A stretch of DNA of 64,000 nt from a bacterium (GTDB lineage: Bacteria; Margulisbacteria; Marinamargulisbacteria; GCA-2716485; JAYNIM01), in contig JAYNIM010000008.1 of assembly GCA_038109055.1 (NCBI GenBank), forward strand, positions 30,866 through 94,865, read 5' to 3'. Made by a program: the position numbers and the translations under genes. The notes below the pieces were generated by a model. That model had not been told where the DNA came from. It saw nothing but the letters and a program-made list of their open reading frames with translations, and did no database searches. Below, one piece after another: positions 12,802 through 48,668 of this stretch; position 1 is the first letter of the stretch; each line of letters opens with the position of its first letter.

Positions 12802-15800
12802 TTACACCGTATTTTTTTGGGGGGCCTTTTTTTTAGAAGACCTACCAACATAATATGTTTTGATCTGATGTTTTGAAGCCGAATCTAAGAAAGGTAAAAG
12901 CAAGGTCAATAAGCGCTGAAAATCTTGGGGCTGTTGCTGAGACCGAGGTTGAGTCATATGCTGAGTAAGAGTCGCTTGAAATGTCGAAGAAAGAACAGGG
13001 TCTATTTCTAATAAGCTCTGCCATAATGTATGAAAAAAAGACTGATGTTTGAAATGACCTTGTGATAACAAACGTTGTAAAATAATCAAAGCTTCAGGTA
13101 CCTTGGTATCCAGCATCTGGTCTAAATGTCGGACAAACGCAGAGACAAAGTCCGGATCTCTCAAGGCATGATGAAAGAGTTTCTTTTGGGTAATAGACAA
13201 GCCCTGACTCCGAGAGAAACGAAGCATCCAAGTAGAGGTATCAATAAAGGAGTTATCATCCGGAGAAGGGGAAGGCGGCAATTCCGCAGAGGAGAACGGG
13301 ACTGACTCTGTAACAGAGGCCCACTGACATCCTAAGGCCAAATACAGCTCAGGCACATCATCCAAAGGTATCGACGCGGTTTTTGATTGTTCAATAACAA
13401 GCGCAGGAAGATGTGCATATTGTGGATTAAGTAAGGCCATATCTAACAACGCTTTCTTTAACGATGGCGAACGAAATGCCATAAACCACGACTTGGCAGG
13501 GAGAGATGACGCTGTTTTGCAGAGAGCCTGAGAAAAACAGGTGTTTAATCCTTCTTGAGAATCAAAAAGCAGGAACAAGGCCTGGCTATGACGGGGGTCT
13601 TGCAAAATAAGATCCAGCAATGACGAACAGTGCTCAGCCGGCAATTTTTGGCAAGCACTGGCAAAAACAACCGCTTTATCGGTGTGTTGAGTAAAGCGTA
13701 GCAAAAAACATAATTGAGCAAGCAGTAAAGGGCCTGATGTGTGACAACGACCATGGTGACAGTCTTGAAGTGTTTGGGAGAGGTGGGTATCTAAATCAGA
13801 GATATCATGACGTTTCTGCTGAACAAAACGCAAACATGTTTGGCGCAACGTAGGATCCAGAAGCACTAAGAAACCCAATAAGGTCTCTGTATCAATCGAA
13901 AGGAGTACAGGGAACAACTGCCAGTCACGAACAGAAAGCCCCGGCTGAGCTTGGTTAAGAAATAAAGCTGTTTTTAAGAAGCCTATCGCAGTAGGCTGAG
14001 AGGTATAATAAGACTGAAGAGCTGGAAGTAAACAGTGTGCAGGAAGATGGCCTTGTCCTGAATCACAATAGGCCAATAATAACTGAGCATCATCCAAGGG
14101 CAAGGCAGCGGCTATCGCAGCGGGATAAGGTTTGGAGGGATCAACGAACCCAATACAACGCAATAAATCAGGCAAGGAGATACTTGGGATCGCTAGTAAC
14201 ATGGTAAACAAGGCACTTCTTTGCAGCGCTGTCCCTCGGGAGAAAGCCCAATGAAAAGGGTGTTGAAATCCTTTGGAATCATAGCTAAACAAAGTAGATA
14301 GCAATTGCGAAAGAGCCTCTGAGTCAGACGCAATGGTGTGAGACCCCAAGGCAAATAGTAATAACTGCTTCGACAAGGATCGCCAAATAGACTCTAAGGT
14401 ATGGCCTAGCTCTTGTTGCATGAAATGCTGACGCAACAAGTGATCAAACAAGGTCCAAAGCTGAAAAACATAGGCAAAGGTAAAGCAAGGTCGGCGAGTG
14501 AGAACATTCGCGACGTCTTTATCAACACTAAGGCGAAAACGTGCTTCATAAGGGCGCAATAAAGAGAGGAGCTCCTTTAAATGAGAGAGCCCCAATGTAG
14601 GAGTGGAAACCGTATCCAAGCCAGAAAGTGCCAAGGCATCAATACGGTTAAATTGGTCATGAGTTTGAGAAGAAAAATAGCCGGTCATGCGGGTTAGGGC
14701 ATGACGAAAACGCGAAAAAGCTGGCAGCAAATGCAGGCCATCAGGAGGATGCTGAGAAAAGAGAGAGACCCAGCGCTCTTGCTGGTCACGAAGTAAATGC
14801 AAACGTTGACAAAGCGAGCGAAGATGGAGGCCAAAAGAAGCAGCCAAGGACTGCAGGGGAGCATGTTGCTGCAAAACACCTTCATGCAAACGCGCGGTAG
14901 GATAGGAAGAGGCATTAATATAGCCCTCTTTTTTCAGCGATTTAAAGAGCGATCGACACGAAGAAGCCGCCAAGGGCTGTCCCGTATCAAGACGTAAGTA
15001 GTGAAACAGCGAGGCAGAAATACGGCCATGAAAGGAGGTGAAAACAGAAGTAAACAAGGTGGAGTCCAAGAGCCACAAGGCCCAAAGCATGGTCAATCGA
15101 TGACGTTGATCCATACGACGAGCCAAGATCATCATGAGCCAGTGGTCAGGCGTTGGTGTATGTAAACAAGACAAAATTGCAACGGCATGACGCAGTAAAG
15201 GTTGAAGCTGATCAGTGATAGAGGAGGGTAAGAGATCAAAAAGGTCCTGATAGAGTTTATGATGAGGAAAGTGAGCACAGGCCAGACAAAATTGAACAAA
15301 GTAACGGGGGTGATAATAGAGGCCCTTAACCAATAACTCGGGACACGTCATCAGAAAGGTAGGGATACGCGCCAAGTGTTTTTTGTCTTGAAAAACAGAC
15401 CAGGGCTGTTCTAAAACGGATTCAAGTTGAGAACGGGTACGGCAATGGGTATATAACTGTTTCAGTAAGGCCGCATCGATCTCTGGCAGTAAAGACGTCA
15501 AGGTAGAAAACTCAAGCTCAGATAAGCTCCCTAAAAAGGCTAACCAACATCCAGAAGCCTGCCATAAGCGAAGAAGCGAGGGCTGGGTATCTAGTCGCGC
15601 GGTGATGACAGTGTGCAACCCCGTCCCGAAGAGATCTTCCTGAAAAGCGTAGCAACGTTGCAAAGAGACCTGCAAGCGGCGATTTGTGAGGCAAGGATCG
15701 CTTGCTTCGTAGAATACGGCCATCGCATGACAGGCCGCAAGCCAGAACGGTCGTTGTGCCAACTCAGTCAAAGGCTGAGAAAGTAGCGCCAGAAAGTCCG

Positions 15801-18800
15801 TATCAGATTGCGACAAGGCGTCAGAAACAAAGGCATGATCACCGGCCAAAGTATAGAGCCGCTGCAACACCTGCAAGCTACGTTGACTATGATAAGCCGT
15901 CAGGTCAAAACGAAGCGAGCCAGACAAGGTGACAGAAGAATGGCCCTGCAACCAAACCTGAAGCTGAGAGAGTGGTGTTACATACAATAAATAGACATGC
16001 AACAAAGCAGATTGCTGGGGCCATTGAGAGACAACATAGGCAACTTCGAGCAGCGAAAAGAGCGAGGCTAACGAGGGGTCAACACAGCTTAAGGAAAAAC
16101 AGTCTTCGATCAGCTGACGTTGCAAGGTGCCAGGGGGGGAATCGGGCGTCAAACTCTCTAAGGCCAACAAGGCTTTGGGGCGACCCATATCGTTAAAACG
16201 AGAGAGCAGCGCTTTAACAACCAACGCATACACCGATTCAAAACAGGCCATGGCATCCTCCGAAAGAGAGGCAAAACTGAGATCGACTAAGGCTGCAACA
16301 AGATCTTCAGACAAGGAAGAGGGGGCAAGTTGTAGAGGGGCTAGGTCAACACGATCATCAAACAAGAGATCCTCATCCTCCGTATCCTCACTAGACGAAT
16401 GGCTCTCACGCTGCTGAGCCTTTGGATGGGGGGTATTCGGATCATCATCGTCAATAGAATCAAGATTATCTGAAAGATGAGACAGTTTTGAGCGGAGAGT
16501 AGGCGATAAAAATTGGGTATAAGCAGTACGTAAAGTAGCGGTTGCCTCATCCTGCTCCATAAAGTGATTAATATCAAATTGTGGCAAAATATGAGGCGAG
16601 CTAGGATTTGCCACAATAGAGTCTAGAGAAGCGGCAATCGCAAAGGTATTAATAGCGACGTCACCTGGATCTTTAGGTTCTTTAATATATTTTTGTATTA
16701 ATTTCTCAATTCGCTTTGACTCAGCTTTATCCAGAGAGGAAAAATGTTTTTGAAACTTTTTTATATAGGCTTGGGCATGTGAAACAATCTTAGAAGCAAC
16801 AGCAGGGTCTTTTGCATCATCGCTTTCAGCAAATTTTTCAGCATATTCCTGGGCTAAATTCTCTACAGCAAAAGCCATCGATTCAGCTACAGGAGCCCCA
16901 GGAACAGGCGCACTTCCATCTGTACTAACTGCTTGAGCAGAAGTCGGAGTAGTTTGAGGCCCAAGAGCAGCCAAAGCTACAGGACCCTGAGTTTGAGACC
17001 CAGCAACAGCCATAGTTCCAGGACCCTGAGTATTTTGAGACCCAGCAACAGCCATAGTTCCAGGACCCTGAGTATTTTGAGGCCCAGCAACAGCCATAGT
17101 TCCAGGACCCTGAGTATTTTGAGGCCCAGCAACAGCCAGGCCACCAGCATTACCTGCTGGATTAGGAGAATCTGGGGCTTGTTTTTTATAAGGCTCCATA
17201 CGCAAGACAAGTTGATCCCTTTTGAATAAATCGACTTCATCTTTATCTTTTTTTCTAAGAACCTCATAGGCCTCATCTTCAGTGTCAAAATCCTCAAAAC
17301 CAGATAGCTGAGCAATGTCGGCATTAAAGGCAAGACTATCTCCTCTGAGAACATGGCCCAAAAAGCGCTTCGTTTCATCCCTAAGAATACCCCCGCCTCC
17401 TTGGTCATTAAGGTTTTTGACCCCTTCCAGGATCCTTTCTTTCGTTTGTTTATCTAAAATAGCAAAGTCTTTCTTAAGCGAAATTAAGGCATTTAAGGCC
17501 CGTTTTTCTTCGATAATAGTTTGAGGGCTTCCGGGGTCGCCAGAGGCATACTGCATTTGCCCCCACATATAGCCAATAAATTCGCGGGCCAAGACGCTAG
17601 CATTGACTGAGTCATCAGCGCGTCGCTGTAGACTTTTAAGAAACGATGAAGGGTGATCCGTCAAATGTGTCGTTTGTTCTGAGGGTAAACGAGATAGATA
17701 AGCAGGATTCTCACGGTCATCCTCATCAGCAACCTCTAATCGAGCTTGAGTGAGTTGGTCAAATAGCTGAGAAGCTATCGGATCTTTAGCCTTTCTAGTA
17801 CGAAATGTGAATCCCTTTTTAGTTCCTTCAAAATCGATGCCCACTTTCTTTTTTCGTAAGGCTTCAATATGGTCATCATATAGGGCGAGTCCTTGTTTTG
17901 AATCAGAGCTATGCAACAATTTGAGGGCCTTTTTAGGGTTTATGGAGCTCGTCCCCCCCGCACCCATCTGCCAGTTAAGTTGGCTTTTATTCAAGCTTAA
18001 CATTGAATACGCTAAGCCAATATCTTCAAAGCTAAGCGTGTCAGAGTCAAAGGAAGGCTCATCTGTCGCGCCAAGGGCATTCAGGACATTTGCGATGTTG
18101 TTAGACAAAGTTGAATCAAGGGGATTAGAAAGGCCAGTAGAGCCAAGAATTTGTACAAGATTCTGTGATGTCGTATTCCCAGATAAAAAGTTGGCTACAT
18201 CGTTCTTGTTAAAACTGCCTTGACTTAGACCCTCCCGAAGTTTCTTAAAAATAGTAGAGTCATCTGATTTAAGTTTCAGCAACTCTTCCAAGGTAGTTTC
18301 TAAGCCGCCTTCATCGCTATCACCTGATAGTTCTTTCAACTTAGAAACCAAGGACCCATCATCGTCCTCAAATGTATGCGCACTCCCTGTTTGTAAGACA
18401 TCTCCCAAAATTTGACGCGCTTCTTTTGAGCGAAAATACTTGGAAGAAGACGAATCAGCATAGTCCCGATAGGCGTCATAGCTCTGTGTAAGTTTCTGTA
18501 CCATCTCACGTCTTTCCTTCAATCCTGTGAGTCCTTTCGAAAACCCACCCTTACCCTTAGAGTCTTTTCCAAAACCGTGAATTGCCGTCTCAAATTGAGC
18601 AATAGAATCTTTAATAGAGGCCGTCGTTGAGTTAGCGTTAGCATGCTTAGCAGCTAATTGGACCGCATGTTTGCGAACCTCAGCAGCGGAGGTTTTAGGA
18701 TCAATAAAGCCAACCAGTTGCGCCATGAGTGTATCCTCTGCATTCTTGTCAGGGAGTATAGAAGTAAGGCCTTGTTTTTGCTCATCTGAAAGCTTAGTAC

Positions 18801-21800
18801 CCCCGCTAAGAAGCGCCTCTCGTTTGCCAGGATCTGTAGCATCTCTAGCAATTTTAAGACCATAGCGCAAGATACCATGAATCTCTTTTTTGCTTTTGTG
18901 AGATTGAATAGCCGCCGTTAAGCCAAGTTTATCAAAGATCTGCGAAAGTCCTTCAGCCGCATCTTGTTTTATATCATCAGATGTTGTTGTTGAAGGGACA
19001 TCCCCCAAAGCCATTAATACCCTCAGTTCTTGAGATGTAGGAGCCTTATTTTGACCATCTGTATCATCAAAATGGTCACTGACTGTTGTCTTGATGTTCT
19101 TAATATTCGCAAAAGTTGCAATTCCAGCCATATCCCCCACCTCAGCCGAAGGCTCATAAGCAGAGCCATGCTGTAAAATATGTCTACGGTCGTCTTTTTC
19201 AGTCCTCACAGCCTCTTTAAGGATGTCTTGAGGGTCAGTGGGGTTAGGGTCAGTCATAGGCCAAGCATGGCGTGTCATGCCCGTAAGCCCAACAAATCCA
19301 TCTTTCAATAAGGCCTGACTGTCCTTAGTGTGAGAAGAATTATTTACCAAAACGTCCAGAAAGGCAGTAAGATAAACCCAGTTATGGGGGAATATTAGTT
19401 TGATAAGACTTACGGGTAAAGACAGACTTAATAACACCCTTCTTAGTAGATTGAAAGGTTTGTTAGTAGGAATATCGGTTACAAGCCAGTTATGCATGTT
19501 TGTAAACGTTCGACCAATAGTAGAATTACTCCATTTTTGTCCAACTTTAAAAGAAAGATCCTTAGCGTCTCGGGACAAACGTGATTCTATGAATGGAGAC
19601 GACAGAATATCTCCCAGGCCACCAATAATGTGACTTGTAACATCACCGACTTTTGCGGTCGTAGAATCTGGTTTAGGGTTTATCTTAGATGAGATATAGG
19701 ATAAAACTTCACCTGGTACAGAAACTGGAAGAGAGGCCGCCGCCAAAATGCCATTCAGAAGCATACGTTTCTTTTTGTGACGTTTTTTGACAGCATTAAC
19801 AGCATTTTCTTTTTCTTTTTCTTTTTCCCTTTTAATAAATACTTCTTTATAAATAGAGTCTAAGAGTGGGATATCAGTATTTGGTTTATTTTGTCTAAAA
19901 TCATCAGCAGCCATCCCATATCTAGTTGCATCATCAGCAAATTTATTTTGTTGGGACGTGTTTAAGTCCTGGAATTCCAAACGAATTTCACTCGCTTTTT
20001 CTGGGTTAGTCTTTTTTTCCCATTCCTCAGCAAATTTCTCCTCAAGTTCAGCATCACTAGGATGAAAGAGGGCCTTTTGATCAGAAGGCATCTTATCAAG
20101 ATCATTGATGGGATCCAAATTAGCAAGTTTCTTCGCATGCTCCTTAACTTCTTGGGGGGTCATAAGGGCACTTTTACCATCAACCCCCATTTTTTGTGCC
20201 AGTGCACGTGTGAGCGGATTAATAAAGGGCGTCTCACCCTTATTCCAGTCATCTTCCTGGCCATCTGCAAAGAGAATATTGTTTAAATTTTTGTCATGCA
20301 TAATATCAAGACGGCGTAATTTTTTTTTCTTCTTATCTAATAAAAGGAAGGGAATAGCGCGTAATGTATTAACAAAAACAGCGGCTGTTGTAGACGTAGG
20401 GCTTGTTTTATTAAGGTAACGCTTGAGTAGAAATCTTTCGAAAACCTTTTGCATGAAATGTTGTAATGAGAGACTAATGTCAGTGGAAAACATACCTTGA
20501 AGAGCTTTCTGTTCTTTTAATAGTTCTTTTCGGATCTGAACATTTCCTTTCATAAGGTCGGCCTCAAACATCAAGTTTTCCATATCAGCAGTGGGCAGTT
20601 GATCACCTGAGATGCCTCCAGCATCTCCAAGATCAGACCCATCTTGAAACATATCTTCCGAATCAAAGGAACTTTGAAGAGCCCCTTCAGACTTAGCAAG
20701 ATTACCCAATATTCGTGCGATGAATAGTTGCAAAAACCCTGTATTTTCCGAAAAGCCCTGCGGGAACACGAGTTTATTAAAGATGAATTTAAGTTTTCGT
20801 GCAGAATTATTGGAGCTAAAAAGATTATTCTTGAATTTCAACTTGAATTTAATTCGCAGCCATTTTTTACTAAGAGCAGCCGTGGCTTTTTTTCCCTGCG
20901 AGGACGACATAACACGACCCCCAAACGCCTTAAGACCTAAGACCCCCATTTTTGTGACAAATTCAAAAACAATAGAACGAATATCATTCACAGCACGGTC
21001 GCGAGACTCTTTAAGTTGTTCTAGCTTAGCGGTTAAACGATCAAGTTTTCGTGATAACAAAGATTGAAAAGCTCCCATGCCCTTTTTTGACATTGAAAAA
21101 GCATTACCTATCACAGCACCTTGGCCAGCAACATCACTAGCACTTGCTAGCGTTTGCATGGCGCTGTCAAAAATATCCATGACCATGGTGGCACGGTTTT
21201 TCTGTTTCTTGAGTTCTAATCGTTTCTTAATAAGGGCCCCACGGTTGATAATGGTGGTTCCCATAGAAGACGTTTTAATCAATTGTGCGTCATTAAGCTT
21301 AGTCTCAACCGTGCTGCCTCCCACATTTTTAACAATATTAGAGGCACGAAGTCCGTCATCTTTTTCTCGGTTTAAGGCAGCATTTTTCTTTTTATCGTCA
21401 GTGTCGGATACGTCGTCAGTAGAGGCAGCCAATGTATCATCAACAGGAAAAAAATCAGTGAGTAAATTAGAGTGTTTAGAAGAAGCAGCATCACGAAGAC
21501 TAAAAAAACGATACAAGCCCACAACAGCTGTAGCAACTGTTTTAATCCCCTTAACCACTCGCTGGGCCGAGATTAACTTTTCTAATTTATCTTTCATGGA
21601 GGTTTTGGTTTCGGCTGTAGCACCAACAGCCGAAGCAATAACATAAGAACTAATAGCGGCAAGGTACACAGTATCAACAGCCGTCTCAAGGGTGAGGGTG
21701 GTTTTTGTGGTCAAATAATCATTATAAAGCTGTACTTGTGCTGAAAGCTCCTCAACAAATGCAGAGGATAATGCTTGTTGAACCTGAGAATACGCATCAA

Positions 21801-24800
21801 GGGCCTGCATGGCTTGTTGCATAACACCTTGACTGGAGCGATTTTCAACGCCTGAAAAGTCTCTTATGACCTTATCAACAGATTTGCGCAGGGTGTCTGT
21901 ATACATGTTAATCAACTGAAATAACTTTAAACGTTGAAGATAATCAACATTCATTTTTTCATCCATAAGGGCAAGGTTTTCAAAATTAAGCTGGGAAAAA
22001 TTAAGAGCAAAATCAAACAAAGCACTCCCGTCAGTATCATATTGAGACTCAATAGACCCATCATAAGCACGGACATCATTTTTAGTAGAATCAAAAATGC
22101 CAGTCTTAAACGTTTGTGAAGAGTTCTCAAAACGACCAGAGCGATTAATAAAGTTAGGCTGACCCTCTTCAAGAGGTTCCAAGGAACGAAAGGTGCCAAA
22201 ATTAGGGACATAGGACCCAGAGTTTGAGTCGCTTATAAAATTATTACGAGTAGCACGGCTAGTAAGTGCGGGATAGTAAAAGGGGTCCGCAGAAACAGAG
22301 CGTGAAAAAAGTTCATCATAATTACTATCCCCATTATTGCCATTAATATTAGGTTGAGATAAGGCACGAAGATTGTCCATGCTTTGAGTATGAAGACCGT
22401 TAAAGAAAGGGGTAGAGTCTGAAGTGTGATGATGAAAAAGGCTTAAAAAATCACGGGCGTGATAATGACGCTGCCCCTCATCAGACAAAGTGGCAGATTG
22501 ACCATCAGAAGATATATCTAAATCTCTAAGCGCATAGCTGGGTAAAAACGTATGAGGTGACGAGACCGAATTCAAGCGACTTTGATTAGGGTGGGAGGGT
22601 GAATTATACAAGGGCTCATTGTATTCATCATAAAAATGATGGCCAGGATTACCTTGATAAAGCTCCATATCAAAAGCAGAGCTTTGGGTACGACGCCAAT
22701 CAGCCAAGGTATTCATACGTTCATCAATACGCGGTTGTTCAAAATAGGTTGTACGCAGGTCAGAATAAGGTTGGGAATGAGAAAGGGGGCTTTCTACTAA
22801 ATCTAAAATTAAGTCTTGGGCCTCTAAGCGTTTTTTTGCGCGCATCCAAGGAATGGGTGAAATATACGCGGCAGGCCCTGTATTTAAAATTTGTCTTAGG
22901 GCATAAAGGGATAAGGAAAAGTCAAGCATCGATTCCGAAAAGTCATAATATTTTTTTCTAATAGTTTTATTAACATCGACATTATGTTTAAAGGCAGTAA
23001 TGAGCGTATCTAATTCAGATTTAAAGGTATCTTTAAGCGAGGTTTCAAAGCTAACAAGGGTAGAAAAGGCCTGTTGTAAACCATCGCGAAGTTGATCTAG
23101 AGAACTGAGAGTTAATTGATGCCTCGAACTAGTTTTAGCAAATAATTGTAAAATAGAAGCAGTTGTATTGCTAAGTGTTTCAAGGTAATGCATCCAAATA
23201 TTAAAATACATCTCTAATCCCTGCATACCTCTAAAATGGCTTTGTTCAATCATAGAAAGAGCTAAGGAATTTTTTGTAAAACCACCGCTACCCGTAGGAA
23301 GTAGGAGCGGAAGTTTTTGCGTTTCCTGCCTACCTGGGAAGGCATGCTCCAGATGTGGAATACGATAGTCAAGTAAGGCATTATTGTCATCTCCGGCAAA
23401 CCCTGTACCAGTAGGCAGCGTTTCTATGCGACCAGCAGCCAATCGACGAAGAGCAATACGAGTATCATCCAGATGAAAGTAGGATTTTGCTAAAAAATCT
23501 TGACTGAGCCTATTCTTAGCAGAAGGGGTTCCATCAAAAAACAAAGAATTACGGCGATAATCAAGCTTAGGATACTGACCTAAGAGCAAATCAGTACGCG
23601 CAGCTAGGCTGCCATTGAGACGATTAGTCATCCAAAATTGATCAGGCGTAGCTTCATTAGACCCTTGATAAATAGAGTTGTCAAAAGGCTTATGTCGAGA
23701 ATCATAGGGAGCATTATTATGATTGGCAGCAGAAAAAGAAGGAGAAAAATTAGTTAAGGAGTCAACACCATAAAATCCACCACCACGGCCAAGTGAAACT
23801 CGTGCGAGATCGTCTTCTTGGTCGTATAAAGGTGACCACTTATTTTTAGGAAACAATACGGGGTAGTATTGCAGGAGATAAGGTGTTTGATAACGATAAA
23901 AGGTTTTATGAATATTATATTCTTTTTCATCAAAGGCACGATCAACGATACCAGACCCTACACGCCAAAAAACAGGGAAACTGAATTGCTTGGGAATAGG
24001 GGGAGGCGACCCAGGGGCGGACCATGCCTTACTTGCAACCTCTAGTGCGGTAGCTAAGCCTTGTGCAATGCCAAAATTAGTAATAGCCACAGTTGATTTC
24101 GTTATATTTAATGTCTGTTCAAGATTGTTTAAATAATACTCTTGTTGATGTTTAATTAACGTATTAATCGCCTCTTTATAATCTTTGAACTGATCATTTA
24201 ATTTCTCGAGAGTCTGGTTGGCAAGGGAAAATTCAGCCATAAAGCGGGAGGACATAATTTTATTAACCGTCGTTTTTACCGGACGTGACTGAGCTCCAGC
24301 AGCCTGAGCAATCCCTGCAGCAGCATCCAGTTGATACTGTTGGATAGCGGATAACGAAATAAACAAAAGATTTAAAAAACGTTCATAGGCATTTAATTTA
24401 TCTAAAAGATCCACATACCAAAACGAATTCATATCAATAAAGGGGCTTGTACGAGTTGCCTCAGATGGAACGAGAAGTTGAGAGATACTACCAAGATCAG
24501 TCACAGAACTAATACCATTTTGGATTTGATCTAGAATTGACGCAACAATAGAAGAATCTTCTGAAAGAACATCTTCAGCATCAATATCATTACTTTTACC
24601 AAGAATGTCTTTCGCAGAAGTACCGGGCGTATATATCACATCAGATCGCATAGCCCCACGTTGATGACGCATAAAAAGCCTGCCGCTATCATCTTGGCCT
24701 GCACGGATACGGTCATCACGCATTTGAGGGTGAAAAAGGCGATAGGGTGTCGAAGCGCTTGGGTTGGAGGCAACAGCAGCTAAGTTGCCAGATAAGTCTG

Positions 24801-27800
24801 GTAACTGAAACGAGCCAGTAGAAAAGTCAATATTTTGGGTATCAATACGATCATACTCAAAATTAGCCACAAAACGTTGAATGGGCGCCATATCTGACGA
24901 CGTATTAAAGGGATTAACCGCATCAAGTGCCGTATTAAAGGTGGTTCTAAAAGAATCAAAAGCAGGAAAAAAATGTTCCAGATTAAAGTGTCTTACTTTA
25001 TTGCCCTCAAAATCTTGGGTATAACGGCTGGTGGTAAAATCTTCTTGTGACCAAAAGGCATCATCAGGTTTGCCATCTTGCAAATTGTCCGAACCATACA
25101 AAGGATCTCGTTGCAATCGACCATTTGAATACTGAAAGGTAGACCCAGGATCAGCTAAAAGTTGGTCGCTACGATCCCTTAAAGCATGATCAAGAGACGG
25201 AATAAGTTTATCTGTATAACTATCAGACCTAAGAGTAGAGTTGTCTTGGTAAGAAAGCCGCGATTTTTGGTGAATGCGAGTCATGAAATTCGTGAAATAG
25301 GCATAGATAAAGGTCATGTTTTTTTCGGTATTTTCAGTGACTAATTTTTGTAAATGAACTCGATACTCTGCACGGGTCTTTTCAAAACCAACCCCCAAGC
25401 CATCCAATAGGTCTGTTGTTGCACCATAAATAAAATTGGCAGCCATTTCTGCATAATTGAGATCATCACCTTCATTTTCAAATTCAACACGTGCATATTG
25501 ATCAATTCTTAACTCAGCCAGTTGATGCATGACGTCATTAATAGATTTAACAGACTCAAAGATTTGGTTTCGAAGAGTTGTAAATGTCGTATTTATTTTT
25601 TGTGTTAAAGCAGAAATAGTGTTATTTAAGCCTTGAAGTATTTTTTCTTTTTCAGCGGTATCAGCACGTTTTTGAGGATCTCCAGCTGCTGCAGCTGGAA
25701 TATTGGCGACGGCATCCTCCATAGTCGTAATAAAATCACTGGCTAAGGCAACAACCATTTCGACACGTGTCAATGCATCACGGATCTCAGTTCCAAGTTT
25801 ATCCAATGGATGATCAAAATAGCCGTCAGAGCTAGGCCCAATATCTTTAAAACTAAGCAATTGAATATAATCATCCATCTCATCACTGTCATAGGTGTCA
25901 ACTTCACCAGCGCCAGAAATTTTATCGGTGGTTGAGGGTCCTTTAAAATATTTTAAATTGACATTAAAGAAGGTATAGTTCCCAAAAAGATCCGTTTGTC
26001 CTTTGGATTTAAGATACGCATAATAGGTTTTATCTAAGCGAATCATAAATCGGCTCTTATTATTTTTTAAAATACTATGCAAGCCATGAAGCAAGGCAGA
26101 GCGTTCGTTGGCAGATAATCCCGATGAGGGAAAAATAGCATTCAATCGGGTAGCATCATCATCAAAAATATAATAATGAGAGCTATTATCAACCTTTGTG
26201 ATAAAGCCATGTTGGATAAGATCAGCCATTAAATTAGCTTCGCCTGTTATCCCTAAGTCTTGACGCAACAAAGAAAGTTTTTCTTCTAAATCAACTGATT
26301 TTAACTTCGTGATATAATCTCCGCCACTAGAGTCAGGGTCAGGATTATCTGCGGAGGATGTTTGAAGAGCGGAAGCAGGTGGAGTAAGCGCCGCCAGAGC
26401 ATCATTAAGCGCAGCTAATTCTTGAACCAATTGCCTAAATTGGGTTATTTCAGTGATTAATGTTTGTGCATTCGCCGGTAATTGAGCAAAAGACGCCAAG
26501 TCGAACATATCAGGGTGACTCGATAAAAAGTGAGTCATGTCACTCACAAGCGCAGTTAGATTTGTTTGCCACGTTTGAGCACTCTCTAAATCATTAACGG
26601 TTGAACCTGAGTTTTCAAAGGAGTTTAAAGATGGAAGCGCATAAAAAGTACCATTATTAAAGCGTATCCCTCTGGGGCTATCTTGATAATCAACAAATTG
26701 ATAAATCCCTTGTTGACTCTCACGACTAACAACACTCAAAACACTTGAAATAAGCGTCTGAATACTGGTATTTGAGCTTTCAATAGCAGCCTCTTTATCA
26801 CGAATTTCTGTAAGTTTTGCTTGATAAGCCGTCAAATCAGTTGTGGATGAAGAAGCGACCGCGGCTGTCGAGGGATCTTCATCTGCATCAATATACTGTT
26901 TATATAAAAGATATTCTGTATAACTGACAAAGTCATACATATACGAGCGGCTATTTCCTTTAGTTTCAATATGAGGCATTCGAAAAACCTCGGCCCAGTC
27001 TTTATTAAAAACAGCGGCCTCTACATTAGCGCCCGCTTGAAAAAGATGGTCGTGTAAACTAAATTGCGGGTCATTAGGATCGTAATGATAGAGAGAACTA
27101 ATAGGGGTGGTATCTTGAAGTCGATTGGGAGAGTGGCCAGCGAGTATAGAGGCATTAGGGGTAGCCCCAAAATTAACAGATTCACCAGCAAAGCCTAGGC
27201 CATATGCAGTATGAAAGTTTGCCGCAATTTCTTGACGTTGTTCAAAATGCTGGTCATTAAACACAAAAACAGTATCAAAATCATTGTCAGAGCGAGGCTC
27301 TAAGCCCTTGCCCAAACTAGGATCTAGGACATACTGGGCCTCAGGAAGGTTTAAAAACACCAACATATGGCCCTGAGGACCATCAGACGTTTGTGCGTAA
27401 CCTGCAGCAAGTTGAACCATGCGACGACTTTGGTCGAAGGAAATCCCTTTATAATCCTCTAAAACATGCAACAGTAACGAGGCCTGAACAATAGCTAAAT
27501 CTTCACAGTCCCCCTGTTGTGTCGCAAACGTTTCACCGATAGATTGCCAATGATCTGTTGAGCCAAGTGCATGAGTCGAGGTCTCAGAGACATAGCGAAA
27601 GCGTTTTTGAACGTAATTAAGCAATTTAACAGAGAGTTCTTCAATCGACATCCCAGCACTAAGCTGGCCACTCTCAAAAAGCTGCCGAACAGTGTCCCGA
27701 ATATGCCCATCCTGACTATTAACCAAATATTGCTGTTTACGAAAGGCCCAAGCCCGAGGGGATAAGGTTGTTTCAAACGAGGATTTAAGAGAGTCCCAAG

Positions 27801-28227
27801 GAGCAAGGTCACGCTGTTGTTGGATTGTCATCTGTTCAAGACAGGCAAGAAGTCGGTTTTGGGTGGCAATATCAATATCGAGTGAAGAAAGAGAATCCGC
27901 CTGAGAAACAAAAAAACGTTTGAGGGCAGCAAGGGTAGTAGGCGGTAAAGGGTCTGCCGAGGCCAGAGTTGTTAAGGCTGTTTTAATGCCATCACGATTC
28001 ATGTCATCATCAAAAGACAAGGCCTCAAGTTGCGAGGCCAAAGACTTTAAGGTATTGGACAAGTCAGGAGCAAGATCATAGTGTTTTGGCGCTAAGGTAT
28101 CAGATGAAGGGGTGGTCTGAGGAAAAGGAATAGGGGAAACAGGACGATTATTCTGATCGGGTGTAGACAACTCAAGCGAGTCGTCTTCAGGTTGCGCGAT
28201 AAACGATGAGTCAATATGTAATGCCAT
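12802..28227 (-). CDS. Giant 5141-aa protein: transglutaminase-like cysteine protease domain (BTLCP/LapG-like), repeated helical modules and a Leu-rich helical C-terminus
   Basis: Uninterrupted 15.4-kb ORF. DHWQ...GDCEDLAI (C241), GHMLV (H287) and YVLDP (D302). No obvious Sec signal peptide. Confidence 0.85.
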   Translation of the reverse strand: MALHIDSSFIAQPEDDSLELSTPDQNNRPVSPIPFPQTTPSSDTLAPKHYDLAPDLSNTLKSLASQLEALSFDDDMNRDGIKTALTTLASADPLPPTTLAALKRFFVSQADSLSSLDIDIATQNRLLACLEQMTIQQQRDLAPWDSLKSSFETTLSPRAWAFRKQQYLVNSQDGHIRDTVRQLFESGQLSAGMSIEELSVKLLNYVQKRFRYVSETSTHALGSTDHWQSIGETFATQQGDCEDLAIVQASLLLHVLEDYKGISFDQSRRMVQLAAGYAQTSDGPQGHMLVFLNLPEAQYVLDPSLGKGLEPRSDNDFDTVFVFNDQHFEQRQEIAANFHTAYGLGFAGESVNFGATPNASILAGHSPNRLQDTTPISSLYHYDPNDPQFSLHDHLFQAGANVEAAVFNKDWAEVFRMPHIETKGNSRSYMYDFVSYTEYLLYKQYIDADEDPSTAAVASSSTTDLTAYQAKLTEIRDKEAAIESSNTSIQTLISSVLSVVSRESQQGIYQFVDYQDSPRGIRFNNGTFYALPSLNSFENSGSTVNDLESAQTWQTNLTALVSDMTHFLSSHPDMFDLASFAQLPANAQTLITEITQFRQLVQELAALNDALAALTPPASALQTSSADNPDPDSSGGDYITKLKSVDLEEKLSLLRQDLGITGEANLMADLIQHGFITKVDNSSHYYIFDDDATRLNAIFPSSGLSANERSALLHGLHSILKNNKSRFMIRLDKTYYAYLKSKGQTDLFGNYTFFNVNLKYFKGPSTTDKISGAGEVDTYDSDEMDDYIQLLSFKDIGPSSDGYFDHPLDKLGTEIRDALTRVEMVVALASDFITTMEDAVANIPAAAAGDPQKRADTAEKEKILQGLNNTISALTQKINTTFTTLRNQIFESVKSINDVMHQLAELRIDQYARVEFENEGDDLNYAEMAANFIYGATTDLLDGLGVGFEKTRAEYRVHLQKLVTENTEKNMTFIYAYFTNFMTRIHQKSRLSYQDNSTLRSDSYTDKLIPSLDHALRDRSDQLLADPGSTFQYSNGRLQRDPLYGSDNLQDGKPDDAFWSQEDFTTSRYTQDFEGNKVRHFNLEHFFPAFDSFRTTFNTALDAVNPFNTSSDMAPIQRFVANFEYDRIDTQNIDFSTGSFQLPDLSGNLAAVASNPSASTPYRLFHPQMRDDRIRAGQDDSGRLFMRHQRGAMRSDVIYTPGTSAKDILGKSNDIDAEDVLSEDSSIVASILDQIQNGISSVTDLGSISQLLVPSEATRTSPFIDMNSFWYVDLLDKLNAYERFLNLLFISLSAIQQYQLDAAAGIAQAAGAQSRPVKTTVNKIMSSRFMAEFSLANQTLEKLNDQFKDYKEAINTLIKHQQEYYLNNLEQTLNITKSTVAITNFGIAQGLATALEVASKAWSAPGSPPPIPKQFSFPVFWRVGSGIVDRAFDEKEYNIHKTFYRYQTPYLLQYYPVLFPKNKWSPLYDQEDDLARVSLGRGGGFYGVDSLTNFSPSFSAANHNNAPYDSRHKPFDNSIYQGSNEATPDQFWMTNRLNGSLAARTDLLLGQYPKLDYRRNSLFFDGTPSAKNRLSQDFLAKSYFHLDDTRIALRRLAAGRIETLPTGTGFAGDDNNALLDYRIPHLEHAFPGRQETQKLPLLLPTGSGGFTKNSLALSMIEQSHFRGMQGLEMYFNIWMHYLETLSNTTASILQLFAKTSSRHQLTLSSLDQLRDGLQQAFSTLVSFETSLKDTFKSELDTLITAFKHNVDVNKTIRKKYYDFSESMLDFSLSLYALRQILNTGPAAYISPIPWMRAKKRLEAQDLILDLVESPLSHSQPYSDLRTTYFEQPRIDERMNTLADWRRTQSSAFDMELYQGNPGHHFYDEYNEPLYNSPSHPNQSRLNSVSSPHTFLPSYALRDLDISSDGQSATLSDEGQRHYHARDFLSLFHHHTSDSTPFFNGLHTQSMDNLRALSQPNINGNNGDSNYDELFSRSVSADPFYYPALTSRATRNNFISDSNSGSYVPNFGTFRSLEPLEEGQPNFINRSGRFENSSQTFKTGIFDSTKNDVRAYDGSIESQYDTDGSALFDFALNFSQLNFENLALMDEKMNVDYLQRLKLFQLINMYTDTLRKSVDKVIRDFSGVENRSSQGVMQQAMQALDAYSQVQQALSSAFVEELSAQVQLYNDYLTTKTTLTLETAVDTVYLAAISSYVIASAVGATAETKTSMKDKLEKLISAQRVVKGIKTVATAVVGLYRFFSLRDAASSKHSNLLTDFFPVDDTLAASTDDVSDTDDKKKNAALNREKDDGLRASNIVKNVGGSTVETKLNDAQLIKTSSMGTTIINRGALIKKRLELKKQKNRATMVMDIFDSAMQTLASASDVAGQGAVIGNAFSMSKKGMGAFQSLLSRKLDRLTAKLEQLKESRDRAVNDIRSIVFEFVTKMGVLGLKAFGGRVMSSSQGKKATAALSKKWLRIKFKLKFKNNLFSSNNSARKLKFIFNKLVFPQGFSENTGFLQLFIARILGNLAKSEGALQSSFDSEDMFQDGSDLGDAGGISGDQLPTADMENLMFEADLMKGNVQIRKELLKEQKALQGMFSTDISLSLQHFMQKVFERFLLKRYLNKTSPTSTTAAVFVNTLRAIPFLLLDKKKKKLRRLDIMHDKNLNNILFADGQEDDWNKGETPFINPLTRALAQKMGVDGKSALMTPQEVKEHAKKLANLDPINDLDKMPSDQKALFHPSDAELEEKFAEEWEKKTNPEKASEIRLEFQDLNTSQQNKFADDATRYGMAADDFRQNKPNTDIPLLDSIYKEVFIKREKEKEKENAVNAVKKRHKKKRMLLNGILAAASLPVSVPGEVLSYISSKINPKPDSTTAKVGDVTSHIIGGLGDILSSPFIESRLSRDAKDLSFKVGQKWSNSTIGRTFTNMHNWLVTDIPTNKPFNLLRRVLLSLSLPVSLIKLIFPHNWVYLTAFLDVLVNNSSHTKDSQALLKDGFVGLTGMTRHAWPMTDPNPTDPQDILKEAVRTEKDDRRHILQHGSAYEPSAEVGDMAGIATFANIKNIKTTVSDHFDDTDGQNKAPTSQELRVLMALGDVPSTTTSDDIKQDAAEGLSQIFDKLGLTAAIQSHKSKKEIHGILRYGLKIARDATDPGKREALLSGGTKLSDEQKQGLTSILPDKNAEDTLMAQLVGFIDPKTSAAEVRKHAVQLAAKHANANSTTASIKDSIAQFETAIHGFGKDSKGKGGFSKGLTGLKERREMVQKLTQSYDAYRDYADSSSSKYFRSKEARQILGDVLQTGSAHTFEDDDGSLVSKLKELSGDSDEGGLETTLEELLKLKSDDSTIFKKLREGLSQGSFNKNDVANFLSGNTTSQNLVQILGSTGLSNPLDSTLSNNIANVLNALGATDEPSFDSDTLSFEDIGLAYSMLSLNKSQLNWQMGAGGTSSINPKKALKLLHSSDSKQGLALYDDHIEALRKKKVGIDFEGTKKGFTFRTRKAKDPIASQLFDQLTQARLEVADEDDRENPAYLSRLPSEQTTHLTDHPSSFLKSLQRRADDSVNASVLAREFIGYMWGQMQYASGDPGSPQTIIEEKRALNALISLKKDFAILDKQTKERILEGVKNLNDQGGGGILRDETKRFLGHVLRGDSLAFNADIAQLSGFEDFDTEDEAYEVLRKKDKDEVDLFKRDQLVLRMEPYKKQAPDSPNPAGNAGGLAVAGPQNTQGPGTMAVAGPQNTQGPGTMAVAGSQNTQGPGTMAVAGSQTQGPVALAALGPQTTPTSAQAVSTDGSAPVPGAPVAESMAFAVENLAQEYAEKFAESDDAKDPAVASKIVSHAQAYIKKFQKHFSSLDKAESKRIEKLIQKYIKEPKDPGDVAINTFAIAASLDSIVANPSSPHILPQFDINHFMEQDEATATLRTAYTQFLSPTLRSKLSHLSDNLDSIDDDDPNTPHPKAQQRESHSSSEDTEDEDLLFDDRVDLAPLQLAPSSLSEDLVAALVDLSFASLSEDAMACFESVYALVVKALLSRFNDMGRPKALLALESLTPDSPPGTLQRQLIEDCFSLSCVDPSLASLFSLLEVAYVVSQWPQQSALLHVYLLYVTPLSQLQVWLQGHSSVTLSGSLRFDLTAYHSQRSLQVLQRLYTLAGDHAFVSDALSQSDTDFLALLSQPLTELAQRPFWLAACHAMAVFYEASDPCLTNRRLQVSLQRCYAFQEDLFGTGLHTVITARLDTQPSLLRLWQASGCWLAFLGSLSELEFSTLTSLLPEIDAALLKQLYTHCRTRSQLESVLEQPWSVFQDKKHLARIPTFLMTCPELLVKGLYYHPRYFVQFCLACAHFPHHKLYQDLFDLLPSSITDQLQPLLRHAVAILSCLHTPTPDHWLMMILARRMDQRHRLTMLWALWLLDSTLFTSVFTSFHGRISASLFHYLRLDTGQPLAASSCRSLFKSLKKEGYINASSYPTARLHEGVLQQHAPLQSLAASFGLHLRSLCQRLHLLRDQQERWVSLFSQHPPDGLHLLPAFSRFRHALTRMTGYFSSQTHDQFNRIDALALSGLDTVSTPTLGLSHLKELLSLLRPYEARFRLSVDKDVANVLTRRPCFTFAYVFQLWTLFDHLLRQHFMQQELGHTLESIWRSLSKQLLLFALGSHTIASDSEALSQLLSTLFSYDSKGFQHPFHWAFSRGTALQRSALFTMLLAIPSISLPDLLRCIGFVDPSKPYPAAIAAALPLDDAQLLLAYCDSGQGHLPAHCLLPALQSYYTSQPTAIGFLKTALFLNQAQPGLSVRDWQLFPVLLSIDTETLLGFLVLLDPTLRQTCLRFVQQKRHDISDLDTHLSQTLQDCHHGRCHTSGPLLLAQLCFLLRFTQHTDKAVVFASACQKLPAEHCSSLLDLILQDPRHSQALFLLFDSQEGLNTCFSQALCKTASSLPAKSWFMAFRSPSLKKALLDMALLNPQYAHLPALVIEQSKTASIPLDDVPELYLALGCQWASVTESVPFSSAELPPSPSPDDNSFIDTSTWMLRFSRSQGLSITQKKLFHHALRDPDFVSAFVRHLDQMLDTKVPEALIILQRLLSQGHFKHQSFFHTLWQSLLEIDPVLSSTFQATLTQHMTQPRSQQQPQDFQRLLTLLLPFLDSASKHQIKTYYVGRSSKKKAPQKNTV
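16981..17138 (-). repeat. In-frame 42-bp tandem repeat (about 3.7 copies, one unit 39 bp) encoding AVAGPQNTQGPGTM
   Basis: aggaccctgag recurs at 16981, 17020, 17062 and 17104 on the + strand. Confidence 0.95.
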
Positions 28228-28318: not shown

Positions 28319-28882
28319 TTAAGAAAGATTGAGCTTTTTTTCTTTATCCGCCTGAAAGGTATTAATACATGCATCGCCAAAATAGTGACGTAGCTCTTTT
28401 TCATGAGGCAGACTCAAACACGTCAATAAATAGGGCTGAATTTTACTAAAACCACGCGCGTTAATACAGTACCAAAAACGCGAGTGTATAGCGGGAGGAT
28501 GCTGCTCTAGGGCGGCAAGTAAGACGGGGGAAACATCATAGGGGCTATGGATCAGTCCTGCTTGAATCAAGGCAATATAGTCAGCCTTTTCACTACGGGC
28601 TAGTAAGGTAACTAAAAAATTCTGAGGGGTATAATGATGAACAGTCGCCAAGGTTGCAATACACAAGGTCTGAGCCAAGGTTGGAAAGGAATCAAAACGA
28701 GCACAGAGCTCAGGCAGTACAGAGGCCTGTTTATGACACAATATCTGAAGCGCCAAGCTAAGTTCTGCAGCAGAAGCATCTGATTGCAAGGTCTCAAACA
28801 AAAACTGGATGTCAGGCGCTTCTAACAAAAAACCATCCAAACAGCGTTCCTCAAGCAACAGTAAACGGGTTAATATGTCCAT
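28319..28882 (-). CDS. Hypothetical helical (HEAT-repeat-like) protein
   Basis: 187 aa of Leu/Ala-rich amphipathic helices; TGCTATACT extended -10 lies 10 nt upstream. Confidence 0.65.
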   Translation of the reverse strand: MDILTRLLLLEERCLDGFLLEAPDIQFLFETLQSDASAAELSLALQILCHKQASVLPELCARFDSFPTLAQTLCIATLATVHHYTPQNFLVTLLARSEKADYIALIQAGLIHSPYDVSPVLLAALEQHPPAIHSRFWYCINARGFSKIQPYLLTCLSLPHEKELRHYFGDACINTFQADKEKKLNLS

Positions 28883-41348: not shown

Positions 41349-42212
41349 CTACAATTTATTAATAAATCCTGATAATGTTTTACCCAAATCATCCATGACA
41401 CCCTGAACAGCAGTTGTTCCACGATTTAAGACATTAAGGTCTAAATTAATACGGGCAATATCCACGTTCGAAGATTCAAACTGAGCACCTAAAACTTTCC
41501 CATAGCGCGCATTTGTACCAGAAATTTTAGTATCAGAATAGCCAAATCCTGTATTCTCTCCAGAAGCAGCGGTAGCTGAAAAAGACGCACCATCAGAGCT
41601 ACCAAGACCTTGTTTATTTTGAAAAGTGGTTAATGCCAAGCGATATAATGGTGTTGCAGATTCTTCAGGGTTTTCTTTGGCACGTTCATAATTTGAGGCA
41701 AGAATACCGCCATCTAAAAATCCAATATCAACAGTATCATTCAATTGAATGGGGACAAGTTCAGTACTAGTTTGTCCTTTTTCATCAATTTTATAGCCAA
41801 AAACCACTCGGCCAAACATGTCAACCATATAACCTGAGTGAGGTTGTTTACGAAAACGCCCATTGCGTGTGTACACATAAGAGATAGCCCCACCATACTG
41901 AACTTGACTAACATCAGCGATAACAAAGAACCCCTCACCATTGATAGCCGCATCAAATTGGGTTCCGGTAACAATCGATCCTTGACCAAAGTCACGCGTT
42001 ACAGCACCTAAAGAAACACTAGAACCCAAATTCACCGGGTTTTGGGATTCTGTCCCACTGGTTAAGGCACGTTCATACATAGTAGTAAACACAGGAAATG
42101 AATACTTAAAGCCAGGGGTATTGTACTGATGCGAATTGGTAATGGCCACACGCAAGGCCCCTTCCATCGCAAAATACGCATTTTTAATATTAATATATAG
42201 ATCTAACATCAA
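41349..42212 (-). CDS. Flagellar rod/hook family protein (FlgG/FlgF/short FlgE-like) with divergent termini
   Basis: NTPGFK, RDFGQGSI, DAAINGEGFF, YTRNGRF, LALTTFQNKQGL and ESSNVD. Confidence 0.88.
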   Translation of the reverse strand: MMLDLYINIKNAYFAMEGALRVAITNSHQYNTPGFKYSFPVFTTMYERALTSGTESQNPVNLGSSVSLGAVTRDFGQGSIVTGTQFDAAINGEGFFVIADVSQVQYGGAISYVYTRNGRFRKQPHSGYMVDMFGRVVFGYKIDEKGQTSTELVPIQLNDTVDIGFLDGGILASNYERAKENPEESATPLYRLALTTFQNKQGLGSSDGASFSATAASGENTGFGYSDTKISGTNARYGKVLGAQFESSNVDIARINLDLNVLNRGTTAVQGVMDDLGKTLSGFINKL

Positions 42213-43999
42213 GCAGCCTCTGAGATTTGTTTTTCCTCTAATGACAAAGATTTAAACATGGAAGGGACAATCGCTGTTGAAATCGAACTTTCTTTTTTTA
42301 AACGCGTGAGTATCTTGTGTAATTTACGAGACTCATTTTTCAAGTGAGAGACATCAGGTTGTGCCTGAGACTGAACGTATAACTTTAAATACGCATCCTG
42401 AAGTACCGGGAAAACGCGACGATTAGCCTCATCTCGAATCATTTTTAAGTCCATCTTGCTTATAGTATAACCCAAGTGAGCCAATTGTTTGAGTAATTGG
42501 GCAATTTCAGACTGAATAAACTTAAAAACATCGCCAGCCAAGTCAGGTAACAAGGCCCTTTCTTCAAAATAATGACGCAAGCGAGACAATAACGAAAAGA
42601 TAGCCGCACGTTTAGCGTGCTCAGCCAAGGTATTCCATCGCTCTTCAGAAGAGGCAGCTTTTTTATGTTTGTGAAGATCATAGCGAAGTTTGATTTGCTT
42701 AAATAAAGAGGGGGTTGTGTATAGGCTATAAAATAACTGTCGAACTTGATTATCAGGATCACTACCTTCAAACATTGTGACGGTCGTAGGAGGTGATTTT
42801 TTTTTGCGTTGCCAATCACAATCAATCAATCCCAACGAATAAGGAACCTGAAAGAGACGTAAACCATGCAAATCAAGTTTGTGATTGAGACTTTGGGCAT
42901 AAGCTTGCGCTGGAAACTGTGAATTTTGTATCAAGGCATTAAAGCGATCCATAGCTGCCGCCAAAAATTTAGGGTCTAAACTATTCAGGCGAATATCAAT
43001 TAAGACCCTATCAAGTTCACTTGCGATAAAACTCCGTAATTCCGATTTTACATCATCTCGTAAGAATTGAAGCTCAAATTCGTGACTAGGATCTTGCTTT
43101 CCACTACGTTTAATCATCTGTCGAAAGACTTCGTATTGGTTCAAGGCATCCTGAGTAATAATGCCTTTCTTCATCTCATTAGCATCATAATACATAAGCG
43201 ATTCAAGAAAATGTTGTTTTAATTGTTTTTTTAAGTTTTTAGCCATAAAGGCCTTAACCCCCTGTTCCATTCCTTGTAAAAGCTTAGGCGAAAGACCATT
43301 TTTCTCTAAGGTTGATCGAGTATGCCTTATGGATTCTTTTTGATTTTTGTTATTTTCTAAGAGTGACTTAGCGAAAAGAACACCATAGCGGTCTAACTGA
43401 GGCTGTAGGTGTTTCGCTGAGCTGAGGGAAGGTGATGTCGAAACAGTGTTTTTTCGAAGCCGATCTGCACGTTTTGATTGTTTATGAAAATCCTGGGGGG
43501 AAAGAAGGCCTAATCCAAGTTTACTCTGCTGCTCGTGTTTATGTTGGGGAGCCACACGAGTCTTAACACGCATCTTCTGTTGCATTTTTTTGGAAATATG
43601 GGGCTGATCTATAAAAGGCTGAGAGATGGTGTCTTTGCGAGAGAGATCATTGGCATGTTGTTTGAGTTGTTGCAACATGCGTTTATTAAATGTTTGAGTT
43701 TGATATTGTTGAAATTTTTCGGCTATCCCTCGTGAAAGATCAGCAATGCCTACTTTTCGGTTGAGCAAATTAAGTGCCGAAGTCGGCGCTGTAGAACTGC
43801 TTTTTTGAGGGGTCGTTTCTTTGCCTTTGTGTTGAAACTCTTCTTTAGGGCGATGTTCACTATGCTCACCGGAGGTTGAAAGAAGTCCCTCGATGTATTT
43901 AGACTGACTTTTAGCTGTTTTATCATAGCTAATAAGTGTAAGATCGCTTTCTTCAAAAATAGAGTCTGAGTGTTCAGAAATACCCGCAACATCCATCAC
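42209..43999 (-). CDS. Hypothetical basic helical protein (596 aa)
   Basis: Long ORF with ATGA overlaps at both ends; low-complexity N-terminus. Confidence 0.8.
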   Translation of the reverse strand: MMDVAGISEHSDSIFEESDLTLISYDKTAKSQSKYIEGLLSTSGEHSEHRPKEEFQHKGKETTPQKSSSTAPTSALNLLNRKVGIADLSRGIAEKFQQYQTQTFNKRMLQQLKQHANDLSRKDTISQPFIDQPHISKKMQQKMRVKTRVAPQHKHEQQSKLGLGLLSPQDFHKQSKRADRLRKNTVSTSPSLSSAKHLQPQLDRYGVLFAKSLLENNKNQKESIRHTRSTLEKNGLSPKLLQGMEQGVKAFMAKNLKKQLKQHFLESLMYYDANEMKKGIITQDALNQYEVFRQMIKRSGKQDPSHEFELQFLRDDVKSELRSFIASELDRVLIDIRLNSLDPKFLAAAMDRFNALIQNSQFPAQAYAQSLNHKLDLHGLRLFQVPYSLGLIDCDWQRKKKSPPTTVTMFEGSDPDNQVRQLFYSLYTTPSLFKQIKLRYDLHKHKKAASSEERWNTLAEHAKRAAIFSLLSRLRHYFEERALLPDLAGDVFKFIQSEIAQLLKQLAHLGYTISKMDLKMIRDEANRRVFPVLQDAYLKLYVQSQAQPDVSHLKNESRKLHKILTRLKKESSISTAIVPSMFKSLSLEEKQISEAA

Positions 44000-48257: not shown

Positions 48258-48668
48258 TTATCTTCCTTTCGCAGCAGTACCAATCTCGCCAGCAATTGAA
48301 GTTGCCTTCGATGTCGTTGCCTCGATAATACCTTTCTTAACTTGAAATTTCATATTGATTTCTTGCAAGGTAACACTTGTTTCCAAGAGTCCACCCATTG
48401 TACTTGTATTTGAACTAGCTGCCGAAGTACCTTGGGCAGTACCAGTACCAGCATTTTGATTGGTCCAAGCCGCAATTTCAAAAGAAACCGCCTTTGTCCA
48501 CTCATCCCCTGTCGCTCTGGCTTCACCTTTAATTTCTTCGTAGTTAGCCAGACTTGTAACCTGGTCTTGACCGTTTACAATGAAATTTTGGTTAAATGAC
48601 TGATCTAATTCGCCTCCCGCATCACCAAAAAGAATTTCATCCATATTTTGTCCAAAATATTCAGCCAT
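48258..48668 (-). CDS. Hypothetical protein (136 aa), filament/needle-subunit-like
   Basis: Perfect AGGAGG SD. G/A/T/S/N-rich and lacking Cys, His and Pro. The functional label is inference. Confidence 0.75.
   Translation of the reverse strand: MAEYFGQNMDEILFGDAGGELDQSFNQNFIVNGQDQVTSLANYEEIKGEARATGDEWTKAVSFEIAAWTNQNAGTGTAQGTSAASSNTSTMGGLLETSVTLQEINMKFQVKKGIIEATTSKATSIAGEIGTAAKGR

Follow-up and report, generated by a model that had tools for sequence, protein, structure and literature searches.

A single protein of 5,141 residues, encoded in a 64,000-nucleotide stretch of DNA (hereafter the window) from a member of the Margulisbacteria (lineage Marinamargulisbacteria; GenBank assembly GCA_038109055.1, contig JAYNIM010000008.1, positions 30,866 to 94,865), is the subject of this study. 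This giant belongs to an undescribed protein family, whose hallmark is a helical module present in five divergent copies, while the machine that hosts it is a variant of type III secretion. In all likelihood the family supplies the distal part of an injection machine derived from the flagellum and, on balance, we lean towards the prediction that in such an injectisome the giant is a tip and translocon fused into one pseudo-pentameric chain. A first-pass annotation of the window had proposed five degenerate modules, each starting with a 33-residue block, and a translocon or pore concatenated in one chain; it made no mention of the LapG-like protease at the N terminus. We verified the open reading frame (ORF) in the window sequence and found it in single copy in the source genome. 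Its parts are as follows.

12802..28227, minus strand: giant ORF, 5141 residues, with a protease domain, five helical modules and a variable C-terminal half
27193..27780, minus strand: predicted LapG/BTLCP-like transglutaminase-fold cysteine protease, giant residues 150-345, from orthologue alignment and profile matches
25273..25830, minus strand: module 1 (M1), residues 800-985, the most divergent copy, hydrophilic
23938..24459, minus strand: module 2 (M2), residues 1257-1430, with the most hydrophobic hairpin of the set behind it, ~30 apolar residues without charge
22783..23295, minus strand: module 3 (M3), residues 1645-1815; orthologues have a Pro/Gly turn in its apolar hairpin, which is weak in the window copy
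21463..22014, minus strand: module 4 (M4), residues 2072-2255, apolar segment, basic linker and second apolar helix
20893..21270, minus strand: module 5 (M5), residues 2320-2445, with an amphipathic tail and then a stretch rich in Lys
12802..20760, minus strand: C-terminal half, residues 2490-5141, with little conservation

The five modules are real, and the peptides originally quoted in their support all occur in the giant at the residues given, but the 33-residue blocks are at chance level as evidence by themselves. Their ten ungapped pairs score from -27 to +15 with BLOSUM62, no higher than 33-mer pairs elsewhere in residues 750-2500, and self-BLAST of the giant returned the full-length match only, the repeat being invisible within a single protein. 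It becomes clear when module profiles built from orthologues are compared by hhalign. With 25 sequences, all six pairs among M2-M5 matched at 87-96%, M1-M2 at 89% and the other three M1 pairs at 7-35%; with 47 sequences, the corresponding values were 91-96%, 90% and 23-57%. Controls, which were reversed profiles, the protease domain and a block downstream, stayed at or below 5.2% in the 35 comparisons made with the smaller set and 6.2% in the 25 made with the larger one. The register of the blocks was right at 1267, 1653 and 2328, right at its start but with ~4 extra residues inside at 2081, and wrong at 804, which should be ~808.

Searches with hidden Markov models (HMMs) gave the same picture. 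A model of module 4 alone produced repeated matches at module positions, typically three to five per orthologue, and a general module HMM run on the ORFs of the source genome picked out exactly the five sites in the giant and nothing else above 8 bits, with one match in the reversed set. All five modules were present in 57 of 116 sequences (47 non-redundant), in the invariable order protease-M1-M2-M3-M4-M5, the remainder being fragments or divergent members. By the general HMM, 42 sequences had five modules, 38 had four, 2 had a weak sixth and 34 had three or fewer, many of these last being fragments. Five modules are also found in divergent members of other classes, some of which lack the protease and measure just 1,250-1,500 residues. 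These profile comparisons indicate that the modules are a homologous five-copy repeat, ancient and fixed in order.

Each module consists of a helix A, a Gly/Ser loop, a long helix B with a conserved terminal Asn (invariant in module 4) and a helical hairpin, and variable linkers separate the five copies. In the N-terminal domain, Cys240 and His287 are invariant and Asp302 is at least 90% conserved among 25 orthologues, and its profile matches the PDB entries 4fgo (E 3e-8) and 4u65 (E 3e-6). With both a Cys-His-Asp triad and homology to LapG, residues 150-345 are predicted to be a LapG-like cysteine protease. The domain resembles LapG/BTLCP proteases (4fgo, 4u65) in its triad and in the region of the GDCED motif; unlike LapG, it is fused within a longer chain, sometimes twice, and comes without a signal peptide, a hydrophobic one having been looked for at the N terminus of the giant with none visible. 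The C-terminal half, which has no Pfam family and of which residues ~3940-4930 are common to only 2 other proteins among the 116 compared, is a candidate variable cargo or adhesive region. Within it, a Gly/Pro/Gln-rich unit of 14 residues is repeated in tandem about four times (~16950-17150, minus strand), and its composition shifts to Leu/Cys/His-rich after residue ~4000.

A hydrophobic stretch had been claimed after every block. We found it after M2 to M4, weakly after M5 and not after M1. Across 47 orthologues, the mean best 19-residue Kyte-Doolittle score was 1.09 for M1, 1.70 for M2, 1.44 for M3, 1.65 for M4 and 1.28 for M5, with a control value of 0.99 in 267 windows after M5. The pattern was sharper in 24 divergent five-module proteins (0.63, 2.16, 1.56, 1.71 and 1.55, respectively), where hydrophobicity is position specific: with reference values of 2.36 for SctE, 2.13 for SctB, 0.68 for IpaD and 0.86 for SseB, M1 resembles tip proteins and M2 resembles translocators. 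Module 1 is a candidate tip-like or needle-docking unit.

We modelled the 940-residue five-module array of a relative (G135) using AlphaFold2 with 32 sequences, and obtained a mean predicted local distance difference test (pLDDT) of 74.3 and a predicted template modelling score (pTM) of 0.69. The model shows a beta-hairpin, helix A, a long helix B and helices C/D, five times over. Because of its pTM, the five modules are predicted to be placed relative to each other as one unit and not as beads on a string. In a low-confidence model of M4+M5 from the window (pLDDT 59.8, pTM 0.38), the chain forms long hairpins of helices.

The general module model matched in 128 of 146 genomes of the phylum (Margulisbacteria being, for this set, an Atlas cluster label) and in 69 of the 72 high-quality ones, which makes the repeat nearly a core gene of the phylum. 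There are normally five repeats per protein and one copy of the giant per genome, two or three in some, and chains range from 1,250 to 7,800 residues. The N-terminal 500 residues of the giant matched in 46 of 61 related genomes, nearly always within an ORF of thousands of codons. Three genomes (G078, G079 and G081) have 14-17 module matches, and at loci L042-L061 (families f13, f24 and f26) there is a second protease domain between modules, often with two copies per genome. Outside itself, the repeat family had no match in Pfam, NCBIfam, PDB or, for the M4+M5 profile, 1.84 billion representatives; the 45 matches found among the latter all bear module-profile matches. No recurring Pfam family was seen on the giant, the M4+M5 region of 24 orthologues or 150 modules, nor any recurring NCBIfam family on the 150 modules, and an Atlas search with M4 peaked at 0.85 with no named family. 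Matches of the module profile to PDB sequences of GajA (E 0.02) and coronavirus HR1 constructs were dismissed as generic heptad coiled-coil noise. Scans of metagenomes and named genomes with the protease domain returned about ten loci of the family and otherwise unrelated transglutaminases. The source genome (G000) also has seven further ORFs of more than 2,200 codons, on contigs C1, C5, C7 and C11, with no tblastn or phmmer relation to the giant.

The source genome, which is 93% complete, encodes FliF, FliE, a short FliG, rods, FlgH/I/A, FliK, FliN, FliP/Q/R, FlhA/B and a sigma factor, and a search of it found no flagellin-family gene, FlgK or FliD. The FliG (L153:15916-16728, contig C1; 270 residues) lies within the basal-body operon and matches by its middle domain only. 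FliP is present in 132 of 146 genomes and flagellin in 15, of which 13 (G057 and G061-G072) have a second FliP, while G017 and G128 gave single matches. Since all 13 carry this second FliP, the flagellin-less system would be a separate machine. G057 has two FlgH and two FlhA; FlgH was found in all five genomes tested, and FlgK and FliD in one of the five, the flagellated one. Gene content therefore points to a second, filament-less, flagellum-derived export system throughout the phylum. The 13 genomes in which a true flagellum stands alongside the flagellin-less system are a natural pair for evolutionary comparison.

The five-module gene is linked with two small helical genes (A and B), p273 and p596, joined in the window's class by p876, a short hook-like gene and the gene upstream of the giant.

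28319..28882, minus strand: 187-residue helical protein, encoded immediately upstream of the giant in the whole of the window's class (26 loci by BLAST, and gene maps)
47687..48205, minus strand: small helical protein A (family ~102 residues), whose orthologue is needle-like by language-model features
48258..48668, minus strand: small helical protein B (family ~88 residues), weakly related to A (hhalign 36%)
45033..47663, minus strand: p876, 876-residue cluster protein, only in the window's class among the loci seen
44215..45036, minus strand: p273, 273-residue cluster protein, two separate genes in several other classes
42209..43999, minus strand: p596, 596-residue cluster protein, adjoining the five-module gene across classes
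41349..42212, minus strand: 287-residue short hook-like protein of the FlgE/F/G family (Pfam PF22692, E 9e-5), which closes the cluster

Gene A and the giant occur at one locus in 24 distinct sources (15 genomes of the window's class, 2 metagenome contigs and 7 genomes of other classes), a count and not a rate, as many other loci are too short to judge; in all 7 genomes of other classes they are on the same strand. By Atlas, the gene A orthologue scored 0.94 (197 of 256 features) to the needle cluster PF09392 of type III secretion systems (T3SS), with 15 hits in that set, which is a good lead to a T3SS needle but not proof. A type III apparatus, widespread as judged by FliP, and a needle-gene context, in the 24 linked sources, are thus both found, the identity of the needle being provisional. 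Protein B, with no Pfam family, is a candidate for a second needle or inner-rod protein, and the 187-residue protein, also with no Pfam family, is a candidate chaperone. Profiles of p596, p273, p876 and the 187-residue protein matched SctW, chaperones and flagellar proteins at less than 5%, with no SctW match for p596. Acyltransferase genes lie near the module array in other classes, and three small genes follow the giant (11065-12768, minus strand; 104, 177 and 283 residues), the first and last of which recur in a few relatives.

The closest parallels are with injectisomes. Like the tip and translocon proteins SctA (LcrV, IpaD, SipD), SctE (YopB, IpaB, SseC) and SctB (YopD, IpaC), the giant is predicted to have long hairpins of helices with apolar segments after them, one unit being hydrophilic and several hydrophobic, and it is encoded near needle-like genes and a candidate chaperone in a genome with type III export. 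Unlike injectisomes, in which separate proteins of 300-600 residues oligomerise, the giant family carries its five divergent repeats on a single chain, the protease being optional, the basal body retains flagellar rods and L/P rings, and no sequence or fold match was detected. A flagellum-derived export machine with no motility filament is also a feature of the Myxococcales type III system and of the needle-bearing ancestral system proposed by Abby and Rocha (PMC3459982). The Myxococcales systems, as described there, lack FlgBCDEK, FliEG, FlgH, SctF, tip and translocon, whereas here FliE, rods, FlgH/I and a short hook gene are kept and there are needle-like and translocon-like candidates.

In the mechanism we propose for a fused tip-plus-translocon, the giant chain would be a type III substrate, because it has no signal peptide, and would leave through the flagellar-type gate of the flagellin-less basal body. 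The products of small genes A and B would build a needle, on the end of which the five helix-A/helix-B hairpins would stand; needles have ~5.5 subunits per turn and, in known systems, are capped by pentamers. Hydrophilic module 1 may dock or sense, the apolar hairpins of M2-M4, and perhaps of M5, would on contact enter the membrane of the target, which could be a protist, an animal cell or another prokaryote, and the LapG-like protease and variable C-terminal half, as lineage-specific additions, might process the giant itself or act upon the target. The original idea of a one-chain translocon or pore gains strong contextual support from the export system, the needle-like neighbours, the number five and the predicted one-unit fold, and loses on translocator homology, on a fold match and on the apolar segment of M1.

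Several observations weigh against this proposal. Single modules matched the YopB and YopD family profiles at no more than 2.2% by hhalign (YopD at most 1.6%), equal to reversed controls, and IpaB/C/D and SseB/C/D/E at no more than 4% (IpaC at most 3.5%), with SctE at most 2.4%. Structure searches brought out no clear match to the folds of translocators or of ClyA-type toxins: for both the M4+M5 and the G135 models, Foldseek gave nothing at E 0.001 and VIA-align gave generic helical bundles of unrelated proteins (best Z 8.6 and 9.5), with no translocator, tip or cap protein among the matches listed. In the window's class the hydrophobicity is marginal, Kyte-Doolittle scores exceeding 1.6 in 60% of M2, 28% of M3 and 49% of M4, and module 1 has no apolar segment. 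That the five modules form a ring with a central channel is our inference. Needle identity of gene A found no support in Pfam (hmmscan, 0 of 16), PDB sequences or hhalign against five SctF sequences (1-2%), and in the window the cluster (41349-48668) is set apart, the start of the giant being ~19 kb from gene A. FliP and the module array are both near-universal in these relatives, so that their co-occurrence is not independent evidence, and G101 (100% complete), G102 and G015 have FliP with modules absent at E 0.5 or at chance level. MotB-like genes are present in 43 of 61 genomes, with three in the source genome, and secretin genes, their system unassigned, in 73 of 75. Finally, a needle is a demanding passage for chains of 2,000-7,800 residues. 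Concerning two of these points, the three MotA/MotB-like pairs of the source genome (C1:40379, C2:122676 and C2:150941) are distant from the flagellar genes and no filament gene was found, and the three high-quality genomes G101, G102 and G015 may have lost or replaced the tip protein.

The failure of sequence matching lowers the case that the modules are SctE or SctB, and not that they work like them, because our translocator reference profiles are narrow and translocators from different T3SS families are often mutually unalignable (PMC3459982). SseC (PF04888) recurred on none of the 150 modules and no gene exceeded its cut-off in any of 61 genomes; the usual major translocator was therefore not found elsewhere. 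The general module profile gave matches below significance to the C-terminal helix of YopD (17% over 35 columns, reversed 0.8%) and to that of SctF (22%, with a five-sequence profile), and less than 7% to the rest.

Flagellar caps occupy the axial tip as pentamers, and the module number of five would fit such occupancy in the manner of FliD or FlgD. The giant might then be a single-chain pentameric cap or adhesive tip on the end of a hook or needle, its apolar hairpins buried in the bundle, guiding filament assembly or holding the host. This would agree with the one-unit predicted fold, with the moderate hydrophobicity of M3-M5, with FliD and FlgK not having been found in the four flagellin-less genomes tested and with the action of LapG relatives on adhesins, but we regard it as unlikely: there is no flagellin to cap, caps have neither apolar hairpins nor a protease, and M2 reaches translocator-level hydrophobicity (2.16) in divergent members. 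Moreover, the modules matched profiles of FliD, FlgK, FlgL and FliC from G057 (1-4 sequences each) at less than 1%, where the control FlgL-FliC scored 90%, although a FlgK model did match 2 of 150 module members at E 0.008.

Less likely again is a released, self-translocating, toxin-like protein, which the type III base would secrete and which, rather than stay on the needle, would make its own one-chain alpha-helical pore in a target and pull in the protease and C-terminal domains. It would account for an enzyme, a pore-like region and a variable cargo in one chain and for the two or three copies in some genomes, and the long helices with a hydrophobic tongue of ClyA, XaxAB, YaxAB and MakA offer a likeness. 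The hints to such toxins are nonetheless at chance level (MakA 3 of 150 members at E 0.03, XaxA 2 of 150; YaxB by VIA-align at rank 21, Z 8.0, root mean square deviation 7.2 over 199), those toxins are multi-chain and released, the protease is missing in several divergent members, and a mostly single-copy, phylum-wide gene in an operon with needle-like structural genes has the pattern of a machine part. We give a small chance to an envelope or surface scaffold apart from type III export, built of coiled-coil stalks or anchored in the cell's own membrane, its linkage being historical. The lack of homology to type III parts, the three FliP genomes with no module array and the split cluster in the source genome would suit it, whereas same-strand linkage to the small genes, p273 and p596 is maintained across classes, the giant has no signal peptide and a hook-like gene sits within the cluster in the window's class.

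If a tip-plus-pore is indeed what the giant forms, living bacteria would hold an intermediate that bears on the long-standing problem of the origin of injectisomes from flagella, with passage of the outer membrane via L/P rings. Abby and Rocha proposed an ancestor bearing a needle and lacking a secretin (PMC3459982). The stoichiometry of the translocon would be set within one chain, making tractable a structure that has so far resisted solution, and there would be a pointer to the lifestyle of these uncultured bacteria, one of which, a Marinamargulisbacterium, is described as intracellular in Trichoplax in PMC6784892. More tentatively, and short of an even chance, we suggest that Margulisbacteria have a third kind of type III machine, with a flagellar basal body, L/P rings, a stub hook, an SctF-like needle and a one-polypeptide, five-repeat tip or pore with fused protease and cargo. 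If so, a flagellum would have been turned into an injectisome independently or very early, the result being kept vertically in a whole phylum next to Cyanobacteria, and most members would have a contact-dependent lifestyle attached to host or prey. In the literature covered, outside of which lay the supplements of PMC6349859 and PMC6784892 and subscription papers, we found no description of the giant or of such a system in Margulisbacteria, and the strings "flagell" and "secretion" are absent from the main text of PMC6349859.

Several other genes deserve mention. Just upstream of the 187-residue gene (28946-33754, minus strand) lies that of a 1602-residue protein with a SecA-like DEAD domain, a C-terminal Ser/Thr kinase and low-complexity ends, by appearance a candidate effector directed at eukaryotes. 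Near the basal-body operon of the source genome (L154:12710-15832, contig C1), a 1040-residue protein that combines ubiquitin C-terminal hydrolase and NADAR domains is another candidate effector and hints at a eukaryotic partner. At the end of the window (59522-64000, plus strand), there is a two-partner secretion pair, consisting of a ShlB/FhaC-type transporter and a haemagglutinin-like ORF that runs past the window end, with a 243-residue PEGA gene between the two.

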